From the NCBI GenBank assembly GCA_041658125.1, contig JBBAAS010000003.1, positions 10,830-74,829 on the forward strand: a stretch of 64,000 nt of DNA, in the 5' to 3' direction. Made by a program: the position numbers and the translations under genes. Under the pieces are notes generated by a model. The model ran no database searches and was not told the DNA's origin. It saw only the letters and a list, made by a program, of their open reading frames with translations. Each line of letters starts with the position of its first letter. Position 1 is the stretch's first letter. This document shows positions 3,481 to 64,000 of this stretch, piece after piece. Origin of the DNA: Candidatus Shapirobacteria bacterium. GTDB lineage: Bacteria; Patescibacteriota; Microgenomatia; UBA12405.

Positions 3481-3555
3481 CCAGCGGTGACCGAACGGTT
3501 AGGTGATGGTCTGTAAAACCATTTTGAGCAGGTTCGACTCCTGCCCGCTGGACCA
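3481..3555 (+). tRNA. tRNA-Tyr (anticodon GUA) with encoded CCA, of class I (short variable arm) design
   Basis: Acceptor stem CCAGCGG/CCGCTGG, anticodon stem ATGGT/ACCAT, anticodon loop CTGTAAA, 5-nt variable loop, T-arm GCAGG-TTCGACT-CCTGC, then A73 and CCA. The first pair is C1:G72. Confidence 0.8.
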
Positions 3556-6266: not shown

Positions 6267-6327
6267 TGACACCGATAATTTCGGTTTTCATTTTCATTTT
6301 TTCCCGATTGTATCGGGATTCGTACTA

Positions 6328-7796
6328 AGAGTTTGATCGTGGCTCAGGGTGAACGCTGGCGGTGTGCCTAAGACATGCAAGTTGAACGGTCCCGATGATC
6401 CCCGCAAGGGGGCTATCGGGACAGTGGCGAACGGGTGAGTAATGGATAGGAACGTACCTCCCAGAGGGACATAGCCCCGCGAAAGCGGGGGTAATTTCCC
6501 ATATTCCCGCAAGGGGAAAGATGCAAATCACTGGAAGAGCGGCCTATTTGCTACCAGCTAGTTGGTGGGGTAATGGCCTACCAAGGCGATGACGGCTAAC
6601 GGCTCTTAGCGGAGAGTCCGTCACAATGGGACTGAGACACGGCCCATACACCTACGGGTGGCAGCAGTTAGGAATTTTGCGCAATGGACGAAAGTCTGAC
6701 GCAGCGACACCGCGTGGAGGATGACAGCCCTCGGGTTGTAAACTCCTTTTCTTTGATATTACTTTCAGAGGAATAAGTAGCTACTAACTACGTGCCAGCA
6801 GTCGCGGTAATACGTAGGCTACAAGCGTTACCCGGTTTTATTGGGTGTAAAGGGTCTGTAGGTGGTTTTTTAAGTCTTGTTTCAAAGACTCCGACTCAAT
6901 CGGAGGAAGGGGCAGGATACTGGGAAACTAGAGTTATATCGGAGTTACTGGAATTTGTAGTGTAGGGGTAAAATCCGTGGATACTACAAAGAACACCAAG
7001 CGCGAAGGCGGGTAACTAGGTATTTACTGACACTTAAAGACGAAAGCTAGGGGATCAAATCAGATTAGAGACCTGAGTAGTCCTAGCCGTAAACTATGTC
7101 TGTTAATTTTTCTCGGCTTTTGCCGGGGGAGGTGTAAGCTAACGCGTTAAACAGACCACCTGGGGAGTATAGCCGCAAGGCCGAAACTCAAACGAATTGG
7201 CGGGGAGGCGCACAACCAGTGGAGCATGTGGTTCAATTCGATACTAAGCGATGAACCTTACCTGGGTTTGAAATCCTGCTGCAAGCCCGCAGAAACGCGG
7301 GCCCCCTTCGAGGGTGCAGGACAGGTGTTGCATGGCTGTCGTCAGCTCGTGACGTGAGTTGTTCTCTTAAGTGAGGTAACGAGCGCAACCCCCATCCGGT
7401 GTTACTGTGTCACCGGAGACTGCCCAGCATTATTTTTGTTGGGAGGAAGGAGGGGACGACGTCAAGTCAGCATGATCCTTATGTCCAGGGCTACACACAT
7501 CCTACAATGGGCTTTACAAAGGGTTGCTAAACCGCGAGGTCAAGCTAATCCCTAAAAGAGCCCCCAGTTGGGACTGCAGGCTGAAACTCGCCTGCACGAA
7601 CTCGGAATTGGTAGTAATCGCACATCAGCAGCGTGCGGTGAATACGTTCTCGCCTCTTGCACACACTGCCCGTCAAATCAGCAAAGTTGAAGGTACCCAA
7701 AACTTCCGTTTATTCGGGAACTAAGGTAAAGTCAGCGATGAGGGTTAAGTCGTAACAAGGTATCCGTACTGGAAGGTGCGGATGGATCACCTCCTT
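6328..7796 (+). rRNA. rrs: 16S ribosomal RNA, about 1.47 kb, not followed by a 23S gene
   Basis: Begins AGAGTTTGATCgTGGCTCAG and ends GGATCACCTCCTT. Internal landmarks GTGCCAGCAGtCGCGGTAA and GcACACACtGCCCGTCA are present. It is a bacterial type with primer-site mismatches. Confidence 0.9.
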
Positions 7797-7870
7797 TGAG
7801 GATTTGTCCCGATCGAAAGATTGGGACCATGAATCGAACTCTTCTGGTACTGACAATCTGACTTCAAACA

Positions 7871-38767: not shown

Positions 38768-41700
38768 TCATATTCGTGTGTAATATTTATTCTTTACACA
38801 GGCGGATTTAACAAAACTTGTATCAGAAACCTTATCTTTAGGAATATCAATATTGAAATAAAGGCAAAAAACTAGGTCGTCAATGTGATTCTTTATCGCT
38901 TGCTGTTTATCAAAATCGATTACCGGTAAAGACATTAACTCAGATAAAGCAATTATTTTTTTGTCTAACCCAAGCCCTTCCTTGTTGTAGTTTGCTTCGA
39001 TGACTTTGCTTACCAGGGAGGAATTTCTCTTGATTGGTAACCTTATCTTTTCTCCCTCTTTTTCCATGACTAATTTGCGATTTTCAACGTAAACTCTATC
39101 AAACTTTTGAATCATTATTTTCGATAAATCTACGAAACTTAAGATGGTTTTGTCTTTTAAAGCCAATACTTCTTCAACTCGTTTAATACTTTCTTTTTTT
39201 ATTGATTCATTATTTTTGCCAATTATTGGGGGACGTATTAGATCTTTAATTACTTTTAGACTTACCAATATTTTATTGGTATCCTCATTTTCAGCGCTAG
39301 CAACATTTTTCAAAATCCATTTTGTAACTTTTGAGTTTAGAAGAGCAAATAAATAAAATATCTCTTGTTTATTATCAGAGGAAATAGTCATATATTTATT
39401 TGTTTCTAACAATATTTTTCGGTTTGTGAAGCAAAAGTTTTTTGTATTTTTTGTTCGCCATATTAGTTTGTTTTCTTGTTTAAATGTCTGAATACCTTGG
39501 CTTCCTTGTGGGAAATTAATTTTCTTGTTTGAAGGGTAATATCTTTTTCCTTTTGGAACTAAATAGTTTACTTCGTCAAGTTCGTCAACTATTTCGTAAT
39601 AATCGTCAACGCTGTTAGTAATATATTTTTCATCTATCAAAGCTCCACCATCGAAGTAAAATTTATTCCCAAACTCGACACTAGATAAAACATGATCTGA
39701 ATAAATTGCGATTCCAATACTATTTCTTATATATTCTTCATAAAGACATTCTGTAATTATGTTAAATTTAATAAAATTCCAATTACCGACATTTTGTAAT
39801 AATTTATTTTGTAGGACTAATTTTTTTATAACTTTTTTACCATGAGAAATGTTTTTAAGACATGTATCGATGTCATCGTTTTTATCTTTATATTTAAGAA
39901 TTTCTACTCTGTGTATAATTGCTGGAATTTCCCTTGAAACTATAAAGATTAAACTTGAGGTTGGAATAGGTTTATTACTTTTTAATCCTCGACCGATAAA
40001 CATTTTTCCGCTAAATATAATAATTTTCTTAATTGTGGTAAATCTCGAAAGATGATAGCGTAGTACGTCAAAATCAGGATTTATTAGAATTGTTTGGGGT
40101 ATGATATAGCATAGTTTCCCCTTATCTTTAAGTAGAGCCAAGCCAAGCGCTATAAAAAATGCAAATAGATTCGGTTTAGGCGCATATTTTTTTTTATTTT
40201 CAGGTGTGCTGTGTAGGTTAACACCGTAAATATCACTTAATTTGGCTTTCTTATTTTTCATAAGTTCGAAACTAAGTAGCCTTTGTTTAATACAATCGTT
40301 ATATCTAATGTATGGGGGGTTACCGATAACATAATCAAAACGTTTCCTTAGGGTTTCGGTGTGATTTTCGAGACTTGTTTTCATTTCTTTCAAATCATCT
40401 TCATCTCGGACATAACTTGAATAACCCAAATTTAGTTTTTCAGTAAATAGACCCATCTGGCCCTTGCTTTTTTGGTAGGCTATATCTATATCATTAACTG
40501 TATTCTTCAGAGCAGTGTCCATGAATTCAGAAATGGAATCATTTGTCTTAAAAACTTTGATTTTTTTGTCTATCGGATTGTTATATTTCTCGTTAATAAT
40601 CAATGAAAGCATACGCATCAGAATACTCATTTCGGCAAGATAAAGAGGAAATTCCTCAATATCAAGTCCAAAGATACCATTTGTTACCGCTTCCTCAATT
40701 TTCTTTGAAGCTTCTTCGCTACCGTTTTTAAAACCCTTAACTATGACGTCTGTGGCAGAATAAAGGAATGTGCCACTACCACAAGAAGGATCAATGATTG
40801 AGATACTATCTTTGTCAAGTTCATATCTTTTGGAAACTGTCTCGGGGGTAAAGCCAACTTGCTCTAACATGAAGTTAACTACTGCCGGGTCGGTAAAATA
40901 TTGGCCTTTTTTGCTTTCGTCGTAAAGTTCTTTTAAGTAGTTTTCGTAAATATAGCCAAATATTTCATTTCTAACATTGGCATAATTATATTTTTTAATA
41001 AAAATAAAAATATCCAACCAGGGAGAAATGTCAGAAAGATTGTTCTCGAGACTGTGGTAGAGTTCTAGAATCTTGTCTTTAATAAACTCCTGTTCTTTTA
41101 TAAAAGGACGATAAATATTTTTCGATATTCTTGCTGAAATGCCCTCAATAATACCGAGAATGTCTTTGTACCTCCCAACTTTTAGAGATTCATGAATTCT
41201 TTTGACTATGGTTTCAAATTCGTTAGCAAAATCATCAAAATCGTTATCGACCAGTGTTTTGTAAAGTATGAACTGAATGACATAGGCGTAGGTAAGTTCA
41301 ATTGCCCGTTTTCCCCTCTCCTTATCGTTTGATGCTTCAAGATATCCCTCAATTTGTAATTTGTTTTTGAATGATTGGATGAGCTTAGTGATGTCTTCAA
41401 AAAAGAGTTGACGATTATTTTCTACGCGGAGTTTTGTTTCTTCAATAAGTGCCAATTGTCCGGTTTTCTCAAAAAATGATAGATAGTAAAATTCGGGTTT
41501 GACGTATTCCTTCCAAAAGGTGAGAAATAATTGGGTGTTGGTTAATAAGTCTTCTAGGGTAAAAACTTTAAAAATGTTGTTATTGTAAAATCGCCAGGTA
41601 TATCCGTCGGTTAAAATGCCATAATGTTTGTCAAAATCTTTCTGGTAGTTAAATAATTGGCTTTCTCCGGTTTTGATATTCCCATAACACTCAACCTCTA

Positions 41701-41953
41701 CTGGTATAGCTATCTCGGAATTAATATAGATATAAAAATCGGCTTTTCTTTTCTCTTTGGCTTTTTTTTCATAAATAAATTCATTTTTGCGATTTTCCAA
41801 TTTAGCTGAAAGATTACCTTCTCTTAGGTCAAACAATTCAGATTCGAAAACTTGTTTAACAAAACTTTGGACTCCAGTTCCAACCTCGGTGGTGCGATAA
41901 TATTCTTTATCTTTTTGCCATAAGGCGTGAAGTGGGTTTAATGTGTTTTTCAT
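38768..41953 (-). CDS. type IIG restriction-modification enzyme (N-terminal PD-(D/E)XK nuclease, gamma-class N6-adenine methyltransferase, target-recognition domain)
   Basis: IDPSCGSGTFLYSA (motif I) and GNPPYIRYN (motif IV, NPPY). N-terminal D...EVECYGNIK nuclease-like motif. 1061 aa, an Eco57I/MmeI-like architecture. Confidence 0.7.
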   Translation of the reverse strand: MKNTLNPLHALWQKDKEYYRTTEVGTGVQSFVKQVFESELFDLREGNLSAKLENRKNEFIYEKKAKEKRKADFYIYINSEIAIPVEVECYGNIKTGESQLFNYQKDFDKHYGILTDGYTWRFYNNNIFKVFTLEDLLTNTQLFLTFWKEYVKPEFYYLSFFEKTGQLALIEETKLRVENNRQLFFEDITKLIQSFKNKLQIEGYLEASNDKERGKRAIELTYAYVIQFILYKTLVDNDFDDFANEFETIVKRIHESLKVGRYKDILGIIEGISARISKNIYRPFIKEQEFIKDKILELYHSLENNLSDISPWLDIFIFIKKYNYANVRNEIFGYIYENYLKELYDESKKGQYFTDPAVVNFMLEQVGFTPETVSKRYELDKDSISIIDPSCGSGTFLYSATDVIVKGFKNGSEEASKKIEEAVTNGIFGLDIEEFPLYLAEMSILMRMLSLIINEKYNNPIDKKIKVFKTNDSISEFMDTALKNTVNDIDIAYQKSKGQMGLFTEKLNLGYSSYVRDEDDLKEMKTSLENHTETLRKRFDYVIGNPPYIRYNDCIKQRLLSFELMKNKKAKLSDIYGVNLHSTPENKKKYAPKPNLFAFFIALGLALLKDKGKLCYIIPQTILINPDFDVLRYHLSRFTTIKKIIIFSGKMFIGRGLKSNKPIPTSSLIFIVSREIPAIIHRVEILKYKDKNDDIDTCLKNISHGKKVIKKLVLQNKLLQNVGNWNFIKFNIITECLYEEYIRNSIGIAIYSDHVLSSVEFGNKFYFDGGALIDEKYITNSVDDYYEIVDELDEVNYLVPKGKRYYPSNKKINFPQGSQGIQTFKQENKLIWRTKNTKNFCFTNRKILLETNKYMTISSDNKQEIFYLFALLNSKVTKWILKNVASAENEDTNKILVSLKVIKDLIRPPIIGKNNESIKKESIKRVEEVLALKDKTILSFVDLSKIMIQKFDRVYVENRKLVMEKEGEKIRLPIKRNSSLVSKVIEANYNKEGLGLDKKIIALSELMSLPVIDFDKQQAIKNHIDDLVFCLYFNIDIPKDKVSDTSFVKSACVKNKYYTRI

Positions 41954-43735: not shown

Positions 43736-44407
43736 TTAGTAAGTCTTGGTGTAACAATTCACCGCTTTGGTAAAGCCGGCCTTGACTGCTTCTTTTTCTG
43801 AACAAAACCATTGATCGCCCTGATCAAGCTCCAAAGCCACATTACTATAGTTGCCGCAACCGGAAAAAAAGTAAGTTTTTTTACCTTCACGGACATTGCC
43901 CTTGATATCGCACTTGGAACTATCGGGATTAGTCTTCTGATAACACTTCGGGCTAAAAACACCCAAGTTATCGACTTTTGCCGATTGAAAGGCCGCCTTT
44001 AATTTTTCCGATTCGATTGAAGCGGTTGATGTAAATCGCGCCCAGCCGGACAGAATCATTTGCTCATTTATTAATTGGTCATCAACATAAACCAAAGCCA
44101 AAAACCGGCCAAAGTGGTCATTAAGCTCACCAACAAGCCGGACTTTTTTCCCGGTTAGAAGACGGGTAAGTAAGGCCGTCGCCTCATCGGCTCCGCACAA
44201 ACCCTCTTCAGGCGCATTAACACTCATTAATCTAATTTGCCGGCCATCATCAACAATAAAAGTATCGCCATCTATAATTCTTTGGACTGAGTATTGGGTC
44301 GGGGCAGGGGTCTTGGTCTTAATCAGAAATATACCTAAAAGCAAATTAAAAATAATTGACAAGGTCAAAAATATTTTAGTCAATAAAAGTAGTTTATACT
44401 TAATCAA
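43736..44407 (-). CDS. secreted thermonuclease (SNase-like)
   Basis: VQRIIDGDTFIVDDGRQIRLMSVNAPE is the staphylococcal nuclease motif; N-terminal TM or signal segment. Confidence 0.7.
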   Translation of the reverse strand: MIKYKLLLLTKIFLTLSIIFNLLLGIFLIKTKTPAPTQYSVQRIIDGDTFIVDDGRQIRLMSVNAPEEGLCGADEATALLTRLLTGKKVRLVGELNDHFGRFLALVYVDDQLINEQMILSGWARFTSTASIESEKLKAAFQSAKVDNLGVFSPKCYQKTNPDSSKCDIKGNVREGKKTYFFSGCGNYSNVALELDQGDQWFCSEKEAVKAGFTKAVNCYTKTY

Positions 44408-46176
44408 TGCACTTTACCTGTCGGACCTTTATCGGCAAACATAGCCCTCAAAGTTGGTCCCAATATTGGGAAAAGGAGGATTCTCTTTTTGGCCTTATCA
44501 ATCTCACTTCCGACGATCCGGCTTCCGATCTTGTCGCTCTTGGTCATTCCCTGATTGATAAAATTAACCAGGCTTTTTCTGTTTCTACTCTTTCGGAAAT
44601 TCTTTCTCAAATTACCTCCGAATATCAAGCTTCCGCCGTCAAAATCAATCTTTCTTTGGTTACCATTTCTGACAATCAGCTTACTTTACTGAATCTTGGC
44701 CAAAATCAGGCTTATCTTCGCCGCGGTCTTCGGATTGCCCCGCTTCTTTCTGCCTCACCCGCTGTTCCCATTACCGGCCAGCTGGCCGCAAACGACCAAA
44801 TTTTTCTTACCACGGAACCTTTTTTTGACGGTTTTGGTTTCGACCGGATCAAGCAGTTTCTTTCCCTTGGCAGTCTTCAGGACATCGAAGAAAATTTTCT
44901 TACCTATCTCAATACATTGGATGTTCAGGACAATCTTGCCGCCGTTTTGATCCAAGCCGAATCCGATGACACCGGTAGTACTTTATTTTCTCCTCTTCCG
45001 GTTTCCGCCCCGCCCCCTCCCGGGGGGCCAAAAGTTTCTCTTTTTTCCCAAATTTCCAAAGCTTTTCCCCGCCGGCAGTCGCTTTATGTTTCTTCCCAGG
45101 ACTTAAACCAAACCAAGCGCCACAAACAGCAAAACGTCATTTTGGCCCTTATTCTTCTTCTGGCTCTTGGCGTCAGTTCCTTTTTTGGTTATCAAAAAAA
45201 TCGTGCCTCCGCTATCGAATCCAAGTACCAAACCATAAAATCGGCTCTTCAGGAAAAATTGACAAATGCCCAAACTGTTAAAAATCTGGATCTTGAATCT
45301 GCCCAAAATTTGGCCAAAGAAGCCCAAGTTCTGCTCAAAGACCTCTCGGCTTTGAAAGTTCATCCTGATGAAGTTTCTGGTTTTGAGTCCCAAATCTCCA
45401 CTTTTCTTTCTCAAACCGGCTCCAAAAGTGACTTTCTCCCCGAAGTTTTTTATGATACCGGTATGATAAAAAATGGTCCGAAATTTAACCATATATTTTA
45501 TTCTAATAAAAATATATTTCTCTTTGACCCGGGGGATGGTCGCCTCACCAGCCTTGATGAAAACCGGAAAATCGACACTATTTCCTCCGCCGACGGACTA
45601 AAAAACCTCCAATTTATCAGTCTCAACAATGGTAAATTTTATGGCGTTTTGGATCAAAAAGTTTTTCTCATTACCAAAACCTCTTTGGATCCGGTTATCG
45701 AGCTTGCTGTTGATCCGGTTAGTCTTCAGTCATGGAATCAGGCCTTTTATCTTTTAAGCTCCGATGCTATTACCAAATTTGCTCCCAATTCTACCGGCTT
45801 TTCCAAAGGCACCCCTTGGCTTCAGGACGGCCAGTCGCTCCCCCAAAACCCCTCTTCTTTGGCCATTAACGGTCAGCTTTGGGTTCTTTCGGCAAATGGT
45901 CAAATTACTGCCTACGATCGCGGTCAAAAGGCCGTTTTTAAACCAAGCCAGCTCGTTGATACCACTGGCGCCAAGAATTTGGTTACTACTGAAAATAGCC
46001 AAATTTTGGCCTTTAACGATTCCCAAAATCAGGTTTATGTCTATCAAAAAAATGGCACCATGCTCGCCAAGTACAATTTCAATACCCTTTCTGTTCTAAG
46101 TCTGGCTCTGAACGTTGACAAAAACCTCCTCTACGTCCTTTGCTCCGACCAAAAGATCTACAAAATTTCTCTCTAG
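44407..46176 (+). CDS. hypothetical protein, carries an in-frame repeat fragment
   Basis: 589 aa with a central TM helix and a Ser/Asn-rich beta-rich C-terminus. ccgccccgccccctcccggggggcc at 45006-45035 encodes SAPPPPGGP. Confidence 0.45.
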   Translation: MHFTCRTFIGKHSPQSWSQYWEKEDSLFGLINLTSDDPASDLVALGHSLIDKINQAFSVSTLSEILSQITSEYQASAVKINLSLVTISDNQLTLLNLGQNQAYLRRGLRIAPLLSASPAVPITGQLAANDQIFLTTEPFFDGFGFDRIKQFLSLGSLQDIEENFLTYLNTLDVQDNLAAVLIQAESDDTGSTLFSPLPVSAPPPPGGPKVSLFSQISKAFPRRQSLYVSSQDLNQTKRHKQQNVILALILLLALGVSSFFGYQKNRASAIESKYQTIKSALQEKLTNAQTVKNLDLESAQNLAKEAQVLLKDLSALKVHPDEVSGFESQISTFLSQTGSKSDFLPEVFYDTGMIKNGPKFNHIFYSNKNIFLFDPGDGRLTSLDENRKIDTISSADGLKNLQFISLNNGKFYGVLDQKVFLITKTSLDPVIELAVDPVSLQSWNQAFYLLSSDAITKFAPNSTGFSKGTPWLQDGQSLPQNPSSLAINGQLWVLSANGQITAYDRGQKAVFKPSQLVDTTGAKNLVTTENSQILAFNDSQNQVYVYQKNGTMLAKYNFNTLSVLSLALNVDKNLLYVLCSDQKIYKISL

Positions 46177-46265: not shown

Positions 46266-46679
46266 ATGCGTCATTTTAATCGCGATTCCCTCGATTACCA
46301 CTTTATCGATAAGCTCGAAGCCGGGCTGGTTTTAACCGGTGCCGACGCCAAATCTCTTCGTACCCAACCCGCCCAATTTCAAAATTCCCAGGTCATTATT
46401 ACCAACGGCATTCCGGAAGTTATCAATCTCAAAATTCCTCTCTACAAATACTCTCAAGGCCAGCTGATCGACACCACCCGCTCCCGCGCTCTTCTTCTCG
46501 CCGAAAAACAAATCGCCAAATTACAAAGCTACCGTCATCAAAAATATATGCTCATCCCCATTGCCATTTATTCCAAAGGCAAATTTTTCAAGCTTGAAGT
46601 CGGTATCGGCCGCAAATTCCGTCAGTATGAAAAAAGGGAGAAAATCAAGGCCAAAGAACTTCGCCAATCACTCGTTTAA
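46266..46679 (+). CDS. smpB: SsrA-binding protein SmpB
   Basis: EAGLVLTGADAKSLR, RSRALLL and KLEVGIGRKFRQYEKREKIKAKE match SmpB conserved blocks. Confidence 0.85.
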   Translation: MRHFNRDSLDYHFIDKLEAGLVLTGADAKSLRTQPAQFQNSQVIITNGIPEVINLKIPLYKYSQGQLIDTTRSRALLLAEKQIAKLQSYRHQKYMLIPIAIYSKGKFFKLEVGIGRKFRQYEKREKIKAKELRQSLV

Positions 46680-46689
46680 AATCTCGATT

Positions 46690-46757
46690 CCCCTGCCCTG
46701 CTTGCCCCTGGGGGGCTTGCCCCTTTGGGGTCAAGGGAAGGGGTAGGGGAAGGGTTT
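46690..46757 (+). repeat. family-1 palindromic repeat (type B)
   Basis: cccctgccctgcttgcccctggggggcttgcccctttggggtcaagggaaggggtaggggaagggttt. Confidence 0.65.
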
Positions 46758-46763
46758 AACAGA

Positions 46764-47206
46764 GGAGATGCCCACTAACGAAGCGGGGTCCAAAGTTGAC
46801 TGAAAAAGACGTCTACAAGCTTAAGATAATTTTCTCCTACACTCTCACTGGCTAAAATTAACAAAAGGCAGTGAAATGCCGATTGGTGAGGGCATTACCC
46901 CTCGCTTGTCTTTTTAGAAAATCGGGATCCTAAAAATAGCATTTCGGTTTAGTTAACACTGATTAATCTTCTCCGAAATAGGGGACTAATCAATGACTAG
47001 CGGCTTACGCCAAAGCGTAAACGGCTTGGCTGGCGGGTTGACTTGCGAAAACCGAACCAGTTACTTCACGAGCCTGATTAAGGGCTGTTCGAAGAGCATT
47101 ACCAATTTTGTTGGCATTATATTTTTGGTCCTTGTTTAGCGACTCTAGAACCAAAGTCGGCTTGCAGTCTTTTAAGGTACAAACTCTGTCGATTCAATTC
47201 ATCTCC
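46764..47206 (-). ncRNA. ssrA: candidate tmRNA (ssrA); boundaries are tentative
   Basis: On the minus strand the 5' end is GGAGAUG-AAUUGAAUCGACAGAG (tmRNA-like D-analog), and the 3' end is GGAC-CCCGC-UUCGUUA-GUGGG-CAUCUCC (T-arm plus a 7-bp acceptor complementary to the 5' end). An internal reading frame ends ...ASQAVYALA-UAA. Adjacent to smpB. Confidence 0.4.
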
Positions 47207-47248
47207 AGTGTTCTCATTGTAGCAAAAATCGCCCCAATTTACCAGTAT

Positions 47249-62489: not shown

Positions 62490-62665
62490 ATGCTTTTTGT
62501 AAATTTTTAACCTTATTTTCCCCGCCAGGTTCTGACAAAGGATCGACTACTTCTTGTTTCATTTTTATCTTCAGGTTCCCCCAAGACCCCTAATTATACC
62601 ACAATTATAGGATAAAATCATCATCTCTTGTCTCAGAATACCAGCCTGTCTTTCCGTTTAATCTG

Positions 62666-62739
62666 TGGGCATGCATGGATTCGGACCATGGACCACCGAC
62701 TTATAAGATCGGTGCTCTAACCAACTGAGCTACATGCCC
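62666..62739 (-). tRNA. tRNA-Ile (anticodon UAU)
   Basis: Minus-strand GGGCATG-TA-GCTCAGTTGGTTAGAGC-A-CCGAT-CTTATAA-GTCGG-TGGTC-CATGG-TCCGAAT-CCATG-CATGCCC-A. Anticodon TAT; no encoded CCA. Confidence 0.75.
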
Positions 62740-62748
62740 ATTTTCTTT

Positions 62749-62785
62749 CCCTCCTTTTTCAAGGGAGGGATTAAGGGTGGGTTTG
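62749..62785 (+). repeat. family-1 repeat (type A) between two tRNA genes
   Basis: CCCTCCTTTTTCAAGGGAGGGattaagggtgggtttg. Confidence 0.65.
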
Positions 62786-62787
62786 TG

Positions 62788-62859
62788 TAGCAGGGGTGGG
62801 AATCGGACCCACAACCTATCGCTTATGAAACGATCGCTCCACCGTTGAGCTACCCTGCC
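62788..62859 (-). tRNA. tRNA-Met (anticodon CAU; elongator or possibly lysidine-Ile2)
   Basis: Minus-strand GGCAGGG-TA-GCTC-AACGGTG-GAGC-G-ATCGT-TTCATAA-GCGAT-AGGTT-GTGGG-TCCGATT-CCCAC-CCCTGCT-A. Confidence 0.75.
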
Positions 62860-62919
62860 AATGGCTGGATTATACCAAAAAAGCCGCCATTCCTGGCAGC
62901 TTTCTGTTAACACCCTGGG

Positions 62920-62989
62920 TTGCGGGGTCAGGAGTTGAACCTGATCTGTGAGATTATGAGCCTCACGTGCAGCCGTACACTACCCCGCA
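62920..62989 (-). tRNA. tRNA-Met (anticodon CAU), initiator-like acceptor stem
   Basis: Minus-strand TGCGGGG-TA-GTGT-ACGGCT-GCAC-G-TGAGG-CTCATAA-TCTCA-CAGA-TCAGG-TTCAACT-CCTGA-CCCCGCA-A. The acceptor GCGGGG/CCCCGC plus A73 matches bacterial fMet, but position 1 is U, paired with A72. Confidence 0.7.
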
Positions 62990-63457: not shown

Positions 63458-64000
63458 TATGACTGATCTATCATTTATCACTGCCTTAGGCCTTTTCACT
63501 TCGGCCCTTATTAAAAAAGGCAAGTCAACCAACACTATTGTAGCCTATAAAGGCGACATCAATCAGCTGGCAAGTTTTTTGGCTTCCCAAGCTCAAATAA
63601 CCACTATTGATCTTGCCAAAACCGTTAATCTTGAGGATTTTAAAAAAGATTTGACAAAAAACGGTTATACCGCCAAATCTGTCTCCCGCAAGCTTAATTC
63701 CATCAAAAACTTCTTTTCTTTCCTTAAAAACGAAAATATCATCGAAATCGACCCGTCCGCCGACATCAAGCATCCCAAATACGAAAACGAAATCCCAAAA
63801 ATTCTCAAGCCTATCGAATACCGTTCTTTGCGCGACGCCTGCCGCAACGACATTCGGGCTACCGCCATTGTCGAACTGATGCTTCAGGCTGGTTTACGTA
63901 TTAAGGAAATTGAAAATCTTAAGACCGACAACGTTCACGACAACGACATTTACGTCGAAGCTAATGAAAGTCATCTTTCCCGTACCGTTCCGCTCAACAA
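63458..64000 (+). CDS. xerC: tyrosine recombinase XerC/XerD-like, N-terminal 181 aa; continues beyond the window
   Basis: Translation MTDLSFITALGLF...GKSTNTIVAYKGDINQLASFL...SIKNFFSFL...RDACRNDIRATAIVELMLQAGLRIKE shows the core-binding domain and the start of the catalytic domain with its Arg-I region. Confidence 0.8.

Follow-up and report, generated by a model that had tools for sequence, protein, structure and literature searches.

The analysed stretch of DNA, a 64,000-nt segment of the 75-kb contig JBBAAS010000003.1 from a Candidatus Shapirobacteria bacterium (hereafter the window), carries a transfer-messenger RNA (tmRNA) gene, ssrA, whose tRNA-like domain has A3:U70 in its acceptor stem instead of G3:U70. 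The G3:U70 pair, the recognition element of alanyl-tRNA synthetase (AlaRS), is the textbook case of a single base pair specifying an amino acid. In tmRNA the third-pair G-U has been called "completely conserved" (PMC3985003), and the A3:U70 tmRNA contradicts this stated universal. Judging from the sequences, we put the probability at about one half that charging of this tmRNA has moved from canonical AlaRS recognition to another synthetase, as an identity change of the whole lineage. Serine, loaded by seryl-tRNA synthetase (SerRS), is the leading candidate for the new amino acid, and we propose it tentatively.

A tmRNA gene with an A3:U70 pair

The Rfam covariance model for tmRNA (RF00023) matched positions 46763..47206 of the minus strand over its entire length (model positions 1-374 of 374). 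The score was 64.7 bits (E = 5.7e-23), the gathering threshold being 47, and the model had no other match in the window. The match corresponds to a one-piece tmRNA of 443 nt plus the discriminator U73 (46763), and the gene lies 84 nt past the stop codon of smpB, to which it is convergently oriented. A first-pass annotation, made by reading the sequence, had placed a candidate tmRNA at this site on the minus strand downstream of smpB and had named the Rfam covariance model as a check; the full-length match bears that proposal out. The 5′ end of the gene reads GGAGAUG-AAUUGAAUCGACAGAG and the 3′ end GGAC-CCCGC-UUCGUUA-GUGGG-CAUCUCC, followed by U and then by CUG, so that no CCA is encoded. The acceptor strands GGAGAUG (47200..47206) and CAUCUCC (46764..46770) form seven Watson-Crick pairs, with A3 (47204) opposite U70 (46766). 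Both elements that mark an AlaRS substrate, G3:U70 and A73, are thus absent from the window tmRNA.

All of these terminal features, namely the sequences of both ends, the perfect acceptor pairing, A3:U70, the U discriminator and the missing CCA, had been described correctly in the first-pass annotation. It had left two explanations side by side, either slightly misplaced boundaries or an unusual ssrA. The second holds and the first does not, as the covariance model spans exactly the proposed ends and a CCA follows N73 in 11 of 86 distinct homologues (see below). A3:U70 and a discriminator other than A remain odd, whereas the unencoded CCA is less odd than had been implied, since CCA is often not encoded in bacterial genes.

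ARAGORN, which had also been suggested as a check, did not call the window ssrA. The program was equally silent on 74 related loci, two of them with G3:U70, and sequences in which G3, A73-CCA, or the canonical form of the T loop or of the D-loop analogue had been put back were not called either. The one call obtained, at very low stringency, was spurious, being of the permuted kind and on the wrong strand. Because the relatives with G3:U70 (L058 and L059) were missed as well, the silence of ARAGORN is no evidence against the gene and carries no information on pair 3:70. Annotation based on this program overlooks the tmRNA genes of Shapirobacteria entirely.

Acceptor stem, body and tag across Shapirobacteria

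Related loci were fetched through an alignment of Shapirobacteria SmpB proteins, 73 from species-representative genomes and 80 from JGI metagenomes. With the window tmRNA as query, nhmmer detected a homologue in 115 loci; 98 of the homologues were full length and 86 were distinct in sequence. The alignment used below (A2) contains 87 sequences. The distinct homologues fell into two acceptor classes. One, with GGAGAUG...CAUCUCC and A3:U70, comprised 49 sequences with G73 and 35 with U73; the other, with GGGGAUG...CAUCUCC, G3:U70 and A73, comprised the remaining two (L058 and L059). A3:U70 was therefore present, and the G3:U70 expected of a tmRNA absent, in 84 of 86 homologues, and position 73 of those 84 was never A or C. 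Throughout the 87 aligned sequences the acceptor strands were invariant, including the 3′ strand with U70 in 87/87, except at position 3, which was A in 85 and G in 2. The two G3:U70 relatives scored 91 and 95 bits against RF00023.

C74 was invariant as well, and a full CCA was encoded directly after N73 in 11 of the 86 homologues (as gcca or tcca), so that the stem register and the discriminator base are established without recourse to the covariance model. Alternative registers were considered and rejected. An eighth pair between positions -1 and 73 was not supported, position -1 being mostly U whatever the nature of N73. A 5-bp stem with CC counted as part of the CCA conflicts with the CCA found after N73 in the 11 sequences and with the agreement between the model ends and the proposed ends. 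No displaced G:U pair occurs in the acceptor stem, and the G:U pairs of the T stem are not conserved.

We then analysed how positions 3 and 73 change relative to each other, using neighbour-joining trees with midpoint rooting, built from the tmRNA with both positions masked and, independently, from SmpB. The only sequences with G3:U70 were also the only ones with A73, and both were nested among A3-type relatives in the tmRNA tree and in the SmpB tree. Their SmpB proteins were 84% (L058) and 80% (L059) identical to those of A3-type neighbours and 77% identical to each other. Parsimony placed A at the root for position 3, with two changes. The polarity of the change rests on the reported conservation of G3:U70 in tmRNA. 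Position 73 flipped between G and U at least 22 times, yet never to A or C while position 3 was A. Positions 3 and 73 thus switch together, since the only G3 sequences carry A73 and lie within the A3 clade, and the tmRNAs display two discrete identity sets, {A3:U70, G/U73} and {G3:U70, A73}.

The body of the molecule was conserved in structure. RNAalifold predicted 72 pairs on A2, of which 50 showed double compensatory changes. Behind the 7-bp acceptor stem lies the T arm (46771..46787, minus strand, from the Rfam alignment), which consists of the 5-bp stem CCCGC/GUGGG and the 7-nt loop UUCGUUA. All five pairs of the T stem covaried and none was broken in the 87 sequences. The loop deviates from the T-loop consensus at position 58, which is U instead of the conserved A that normally makes a reverse-Hoogsteen pair with T54. 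Most relatives likewise have U at position 58 (UUCAUUA, UUCGUUA or GUCAUUC), and a minority has A58 (CUCGAUA, CUCAAUA). The D-loop analogue AAUUGAAUCGAC (47188..47199, minus strand) aligned to the Rfam consensus GAucuGGaUUCGAC, with G12, U15, G17, A18 and C19 invariant, and is inferred from established tmRNA structures to be the region of SmpB binding.

The connector helix P2 pairs a 5′ strand at 47160..47188 (Rfam alignment) with a 3′ strand at 46792..46820 containing the invariant AAGCUUGUAGA (alignment A2), both on the minus strand; in RNAalifold, columns 20-48 paired with columns 560-592 and compensatory changes were present. Upstream of the resume codon lies the PK1 hairpin (47140..47159, minus strand) with the stem CGACU/AGUCG, where RNAalifold paired columns 49-53 with 68-72 and an AU to GC exchange occurred in 10 sequences, a count that concerns the nested stem only. 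Helices downstream of PK1 also covaried. Across the PK1-PK4 regions the helices scored were the nested ones, which both covaried and aligned to RF00023. A lack of conserved structure in homologous loci had been named at the outset as grounds for abandoning the gene, and the covariation among the relatives is the opposite of that outcome.

Seven of the related tmRNAs (L013, L053, L060, L102, L145, L154 and L156) had an additional hairpin, about 30-40 nt long, inserted after the PK1 hairpin and ahead of the resume region (A2 columns 73-110), and two of these (L060 and L156) had a further insertion in the last pseudoknot region. The hairpin insertions are a lineage-specific expansion of the tmRNA body.

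The tag frame occupies 47005..47115 of the minus strand, with the resume codon GCC (47115-47113), 36 codons and the stop codon UAA (47007-47005), and translates to ANKIGNALRTALNQAREVTGSVFASQPASQAVYALA; its end, YALA-UAA, had been recognized as tag-like in the first-pass annotation. The frame was open in 87/87 sequences with 28-41 codons (median 31), so that the window tag is long but typical of its clade. The AUGCY context of the resume codon was invariant in the 87 sequences, and UAA was the stop codon in 84 of them. The tag ends in ALA in 42/87 sequences, a hydrophobic C-terminus as in the window, and in Cys in 29/87, mostly as A-x-C (A-V-C, A-T-C, A-Y-C or A-A-C). The Cys ending is unusual for a C-terminal degradation signal, a hint that the protease or adaptor may differ in specificity.

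Upstream of the gene, an extended -10 element, TGCTACAAT (47216..47224, minus strand), matches TGnTAnAAT and ends 9 nt before the mature 5′ end. The same motif was found in 85/85 upstream regions, ending 8-19 nt (mode 9) before GGAGAUG. A generic two-hexamer scan detected no -35/-10 promoter at ssrA, which is consistent with an extended -10 promoter lacking a -35 box.

Set against the standard one-piece tmRNA (RF00023; E. coli SsrA) with its partner SmpB, the Shapirobacteria system shares the tRNA-like domain formed from the 5′ and 3′ ends with its 7-bp acceptor and 5-bp T stems, P2, the PK1 hairpin before a GCN resume codon, a hydrophobic A-x-A tag end, the downstream helices and the smpB partner. 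It differs in A3:U70, in G or U rather than the A73-CCA of the standard form (U73 and no CCA in the window), in a T loop that usually has U58, in a very long tag with a Cys end in one third of the sequences (29/87), and in a short SmpB (135-140 aa) with at most about 40% identity to the nearest one outside the clade. The compensatory changes, the open tag frames, the conserved promoter element and the intact smpB next to the gene show that ssrA is no pseudogene but is kept by purifying selection, in its tRNA-like as in its mRNA-like function, and we regard the window gene as almost certainly a functional tmRNA.

Which amino acid is loaded

Only synthetases without an anticodon requirement can charge a tmRNA. 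LeuRS needs A73, HisRS needs G-1 and C73, and GlyRS needs C2:G71. The A3:U70 substitution reportedly abolishes alanine acceptance of E. coli tRNAAla. The acceptor helix of the window tmRNA, with G1:C72 and G2:C71 as in SerRS substrates and GGAGA/UCUCC over its first five pairs, begins with the same GGAGA as tRNASer in E. coli (GGAGAGA...) and T. thermophilus (GGAGAGG...CCUCUCC-G), so that pairs 3:70 to 5:68 are serine-like too. Shared with the bacterial tRNASer acceptor helix are G1:C72, G2:C71, A3:U70 and a pyrimidine at position 69, together with G73 in 49 of the 84 A3-type relatives.

Serine identity is anticodon-independent and relies on the variable arm, and G1-C72 and G2-C71 are conserved in bacterial tRNASer (PMC9976931). 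According to the same source, G73 is a moderate serine determinant, acting in vivo but not with unmodified transcripts in vitro, and A73 is an antideterminant against SerRS in human tRNALeu. SerRS would therefore fit best, being anticodon-independent, sharing G1-C72 and G2-C71 with the tmRNA and depending on G73 only moderately. The long variable arm is the chief determinant for SerRS. In the structure of the tRNA-like domain with SmpB, as reported in PMC3985003 from Bessho 2007, the connector helix projects like a class II variable arm.

Most likely, transcription of ssrA starts at its extended -10 promoter and leaves a leader a few nucleotides long, the tmRNA is trimmed at its ends and receives CCA, and the charged molecule acts in trans-translation, entering stalled ribosomes together with SmpB and adding a tag of about 30 residues that ends in A-x-A or A-x-C. 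On the serine reading, the change of G3 to A and the loss of A73 would have moved the tRNA-like domain from AlaRS to another synthetase that does not need the anticodon. SerRS is the most plausible one; it would recognize the GGAGA acceptor helix, with P2 as a mimic of the variable arm. Rescued proteins of the lineage would then receive Ser-ANK... in place of Ala-ANK..., and one or two sublineages would have switched back by regaining G3 and A73 jointly.

Several points weigh against a change to serine or to another synthetase. The window tmRNA has U73 rather than the G73 favoured by SerRS, as do 35 of the 84 A3-type relatives, and unlike a bacterial tRNASer the molecule has no true long variable arm, only P2, whose proposed mimicry is taken from structures of other bacteria. 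The trees were made by simple neighbour joining from short sequences, with a midpoint root, and L058 and L059 may go back to a single reversion; even then, the canonical combination of G3 and A73 was regained together from inside the clade. A second, canonical ssrA may also lie elsewhere in Shapirobacteria genomes.

A survey of about 1.2 Mb of Shapirobacteria DNA yielded neither a tRNA-Ala nor a tRNA-Ser gene. The DNA comprised the surroundings of smpB in GTDB genomes and JGI metagenomes (about 1.08 Mb), about 10 kb past each end of the window, and the TrpRS neighbourhoods of three other genomes. The tRNAs in this DNA were only tRNA-Tyr, tRNA-Ile(UAU) and two tRNA-Met. Searches of the same DNA with tblastn, with approximate E. 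coli sequences as queries, found neither AlaRS nor SerRS. The sampled neighbourhoods are syntenic and return the same genes again. The 16S rRNA gene of the window (6321-7797, plus strand) stands alone, followed neither by a 23S rRNA gene nor by the tRNA-Ile or tRNA-Ala of a spacer, and for this reason the usual site of tRNA-Ala is empty in the lineage.

We also considered Cys or Gly identity through U73, as U73 alone permits cysteine charging of minihelices. This candidate was dropped, because close relatives switch freely between G73 and U73 and the Cys-ended tags do not track U73.

A possible, though rather doubtful, alternative to a change of synthetase is that alanine is still loaded, by a Shapirobacteria AlaRS or a paralogue adapted to a tmRNA without G3:U70. 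Such an enzyme might use the shape of the helix, other features of the acceptor stem or SmpB-assisted binding, and AlaRS enzymes independent of G3:U70 do occur in mitochondria (PMC6451123; PMC9976931). There the natural loss of G3:U70 from tRNAAla is accommodated by the synthetase (PMC6451123), but in a one-to-one organellar co-evolution of tRNA and enzyme, whereas a bacterial AlaRS must still serve tRNAAla and revertants in the present clade regain G3 together with A73. Continued alanine loading would agree with the encoded Ala codon that opens every tag, with ALA as the commonest tag ending noted, with an acceptor stem that is otherwise identical to that of the G3:U70 revertants, and with a lineage that has another odd tRNA identity feature, a tRNA-Tyr with C1:G72 (see below). 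It agrees less well with position 73. If AlaRS had merely relaxed, A73 should have persisted as the remaining determinant or drifted freely, yet it is absent from all 84 A3-type sequences. The joint regain of G3 and A73, unexpected under a relaxed AlaRS, is expected if there are two alternative identity sets, and it suggests that canonical AlaRS rules still operate. An enzyme accepting A3:U70 would, moreover, be likely to risk mischarging other tRNAs.

We consider it improbable that the window ssrA is a specialized or decaying second copy that stays uncharged, acting by titration of SmpB or as a regulatory RNA while a canonical tmRNA elsewhere performs rescue. About one quarter of the related smpB loci have no tmRNA within 2.5 kb, so that ssrA can lie elsewhere, and molecules consisting only of a tRNA-like domain are known to inhibit tmRNA (PMC4131195). 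Against such a role stand the tag frame, intact in every sequence, with its invariant resume context and C-termini resembling degradation signals, the invariant acceptor stem, covariation throughout the molecule, the conserved promoter and the typical position beside smpB. The tmRNA database gives 0.78 tmRNA genes per Patescibacteria genome, so that duplicates are not the rule.

It is very improbable that A3 is modified or edited, for example to inosine, so as to restore a wobble pair with U70 and allow canonical AlaRS charging to continue. An I:U pair is geometrically like G:U, but I3:U70 is reportedly inactive in E. coli and does not offer the exocyclic 2-amino group required by AlaRS, we know of no bacterial editing enzyme for position 3 of the acceptor stem, and the loss of A73 would be left unexplained. 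An apparent A3:U70 created by a sequencing or assembly error or by a mis-set boundary has a negligible chance, for although the window comes from a metagenome-assembled genome, A3:U70 recurs in 84 distinct sequences from independent assemblies and samples, the CCA follows N73 in 11 of them, and the covariance model arrives at the same ends.

An identity other than alanine would be compatible with tmRNA function. As described in PMC3985003, where Nameki et al. 1999 is cited, an engineered E. coli tmRNA with histidine identity had its identity moved off alanine and still supported trans-translation, which means that the charged amino acid need not be alanine. That tmRNA was, according to the same description, an in vitro construct, whereas the switch in Shapirobacteria, if real, is natural and clade-wide. 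The closest documented anomaly of a tmRNA acceptor stem is found in Carsonella ruddii (PMC4131195), likewise a natural departure from an otherwise invariant acceptor-stem pair. It differs in that the affected pair is 1:72, with A:U in place of G:C, in two strains and owing to a gene overlap, and 3:70 is untouched.

smpB, other features and meaning of the A3:U70 tmRNA

The partner gene smpB (46266..46679, plus strand) encodes an SsrA-binding protein of 137 aa that matched Pfam PF01668 with 94.9 bits against a cut-off of 27 (E = 5e-27). SmpB chains from the PDB aligned with it as far as the basic C-terminal tail (best E = 2e-17), where its motif Y-E-K-R-E stands opposite Y-D-K-R-E of the PDB proteins. 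The scores of the protein fell below the NCBIfam equivalog cut-offs (TIGR00086 and NF003843; 96.9 against 130 and 92.1 against 119.1), which reflects its divergence. It had 264 homologues, and where NCBI records gave names, these were SsrA-binding protein of Shapirobacteria or Patescibacteria. A TrpRS with 100% identity to that of the window is likewise assigned in NCBI to Candidatus Shapirobacteria (Patescibacteria/CPR, Microgenomates).

Shapirobacteria SmpBs formed a tight group of short proteins (135-140 aa) with mutual identities of at least 49%, in a search seeded with a divergent member. The next SmpBs found outside the clade had 146-174 aa and identities of about 40% at most. Co-evolution of the Shapirobacteria SmpB with an altered tRNA-like domain is possible. 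The nearest SmpB genes found outside the clade (identity of 40% or less) had no adjoining tmRNA gene.

Between the convergent 3′ ends of smpB and ssrA lies a G+C-rich spacer with short inverted repeats (46680..46762). A terminator scan of this spacer found no canonical site; to judge by its repeats, it is a possible shared terminator for both genes. Directly upstream of smpB, an open reading frame at 44407-46176 (plus strand) encodes a 589-aa protein without a Pfam match. Genes of similar size precede smpB in one relative (L001; 620 aa, with a faint beta-propeller match) and in an out-group locus (L170; 557 aa, likewise without a Pfam match). Judged by size and position, the frame may be a conserved uncharacterized neighbour of smpB.

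The window also contains a tRNA-Tyr(GUA) gene (3481-3555, plus strand) with the acceptor stem CCAGCGG/CCGCUGG (C1:G72), A73, a short variable region of 5 nt and an encoded CCA. Such a tRNA-Tyr is of archaeal and eukaryal type, whereas the bacterial one belongs to class II and has G1:C72 and a long variable arm. The same form was found in four relatives (L078, L079, L105 and L107). Its sequence suggests a TyrRS of non-bacterial type, and with C1:G72 in tRNA-Tyr the lineage has further peculiarities of tRNA identity. Near the other end of the window, at 62665-62989 (minus strand) and 63525-64000, a tRNA-Ile(UAU) and two tRNA-Met(CAU) genes lie beside a DivIC-like gene and a tyrosine recombinase (Phage_integrase), an arrangement kept in L075, L162, L165 and L167. 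tRNA-Ile(UAU) is rare in bacteria, and one of the CAU tRNAs may be a lysidine-type tRNA-Ile or an initiator. A further gene (38768-41953, minus strand) encodes a fused type IIG/IIL restriction-modification enzyme of 1061 aa with Eco57I, MmeI-like and N6_Mtase domains and a TaqI_C specificity domain.

Full-text literature searches, to which most subscription-journal papers were out of reach, returned neither a natural tmRNA lacking G3:U70 nor a suggestion that any tmRNA is charged with serine. The paper on the tmRNA database from 2025 lists 5,275 Patescibacteria tmRNAs, among which Shapirobacteria sequences may already be present, and its text does not discuss alanine identity. If charging with an amino acid other than alanine is true, Shapirobacteria would hold the first natural tmRNA not charged with alanine. 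The natural revertants with G3:U70 and A73 offer built-in controls. Either trans-translation here starts with a residue other than alanine, or these bacteria have an AlaRS independent of G3:U70, and either outcome would revise a long-held rule.

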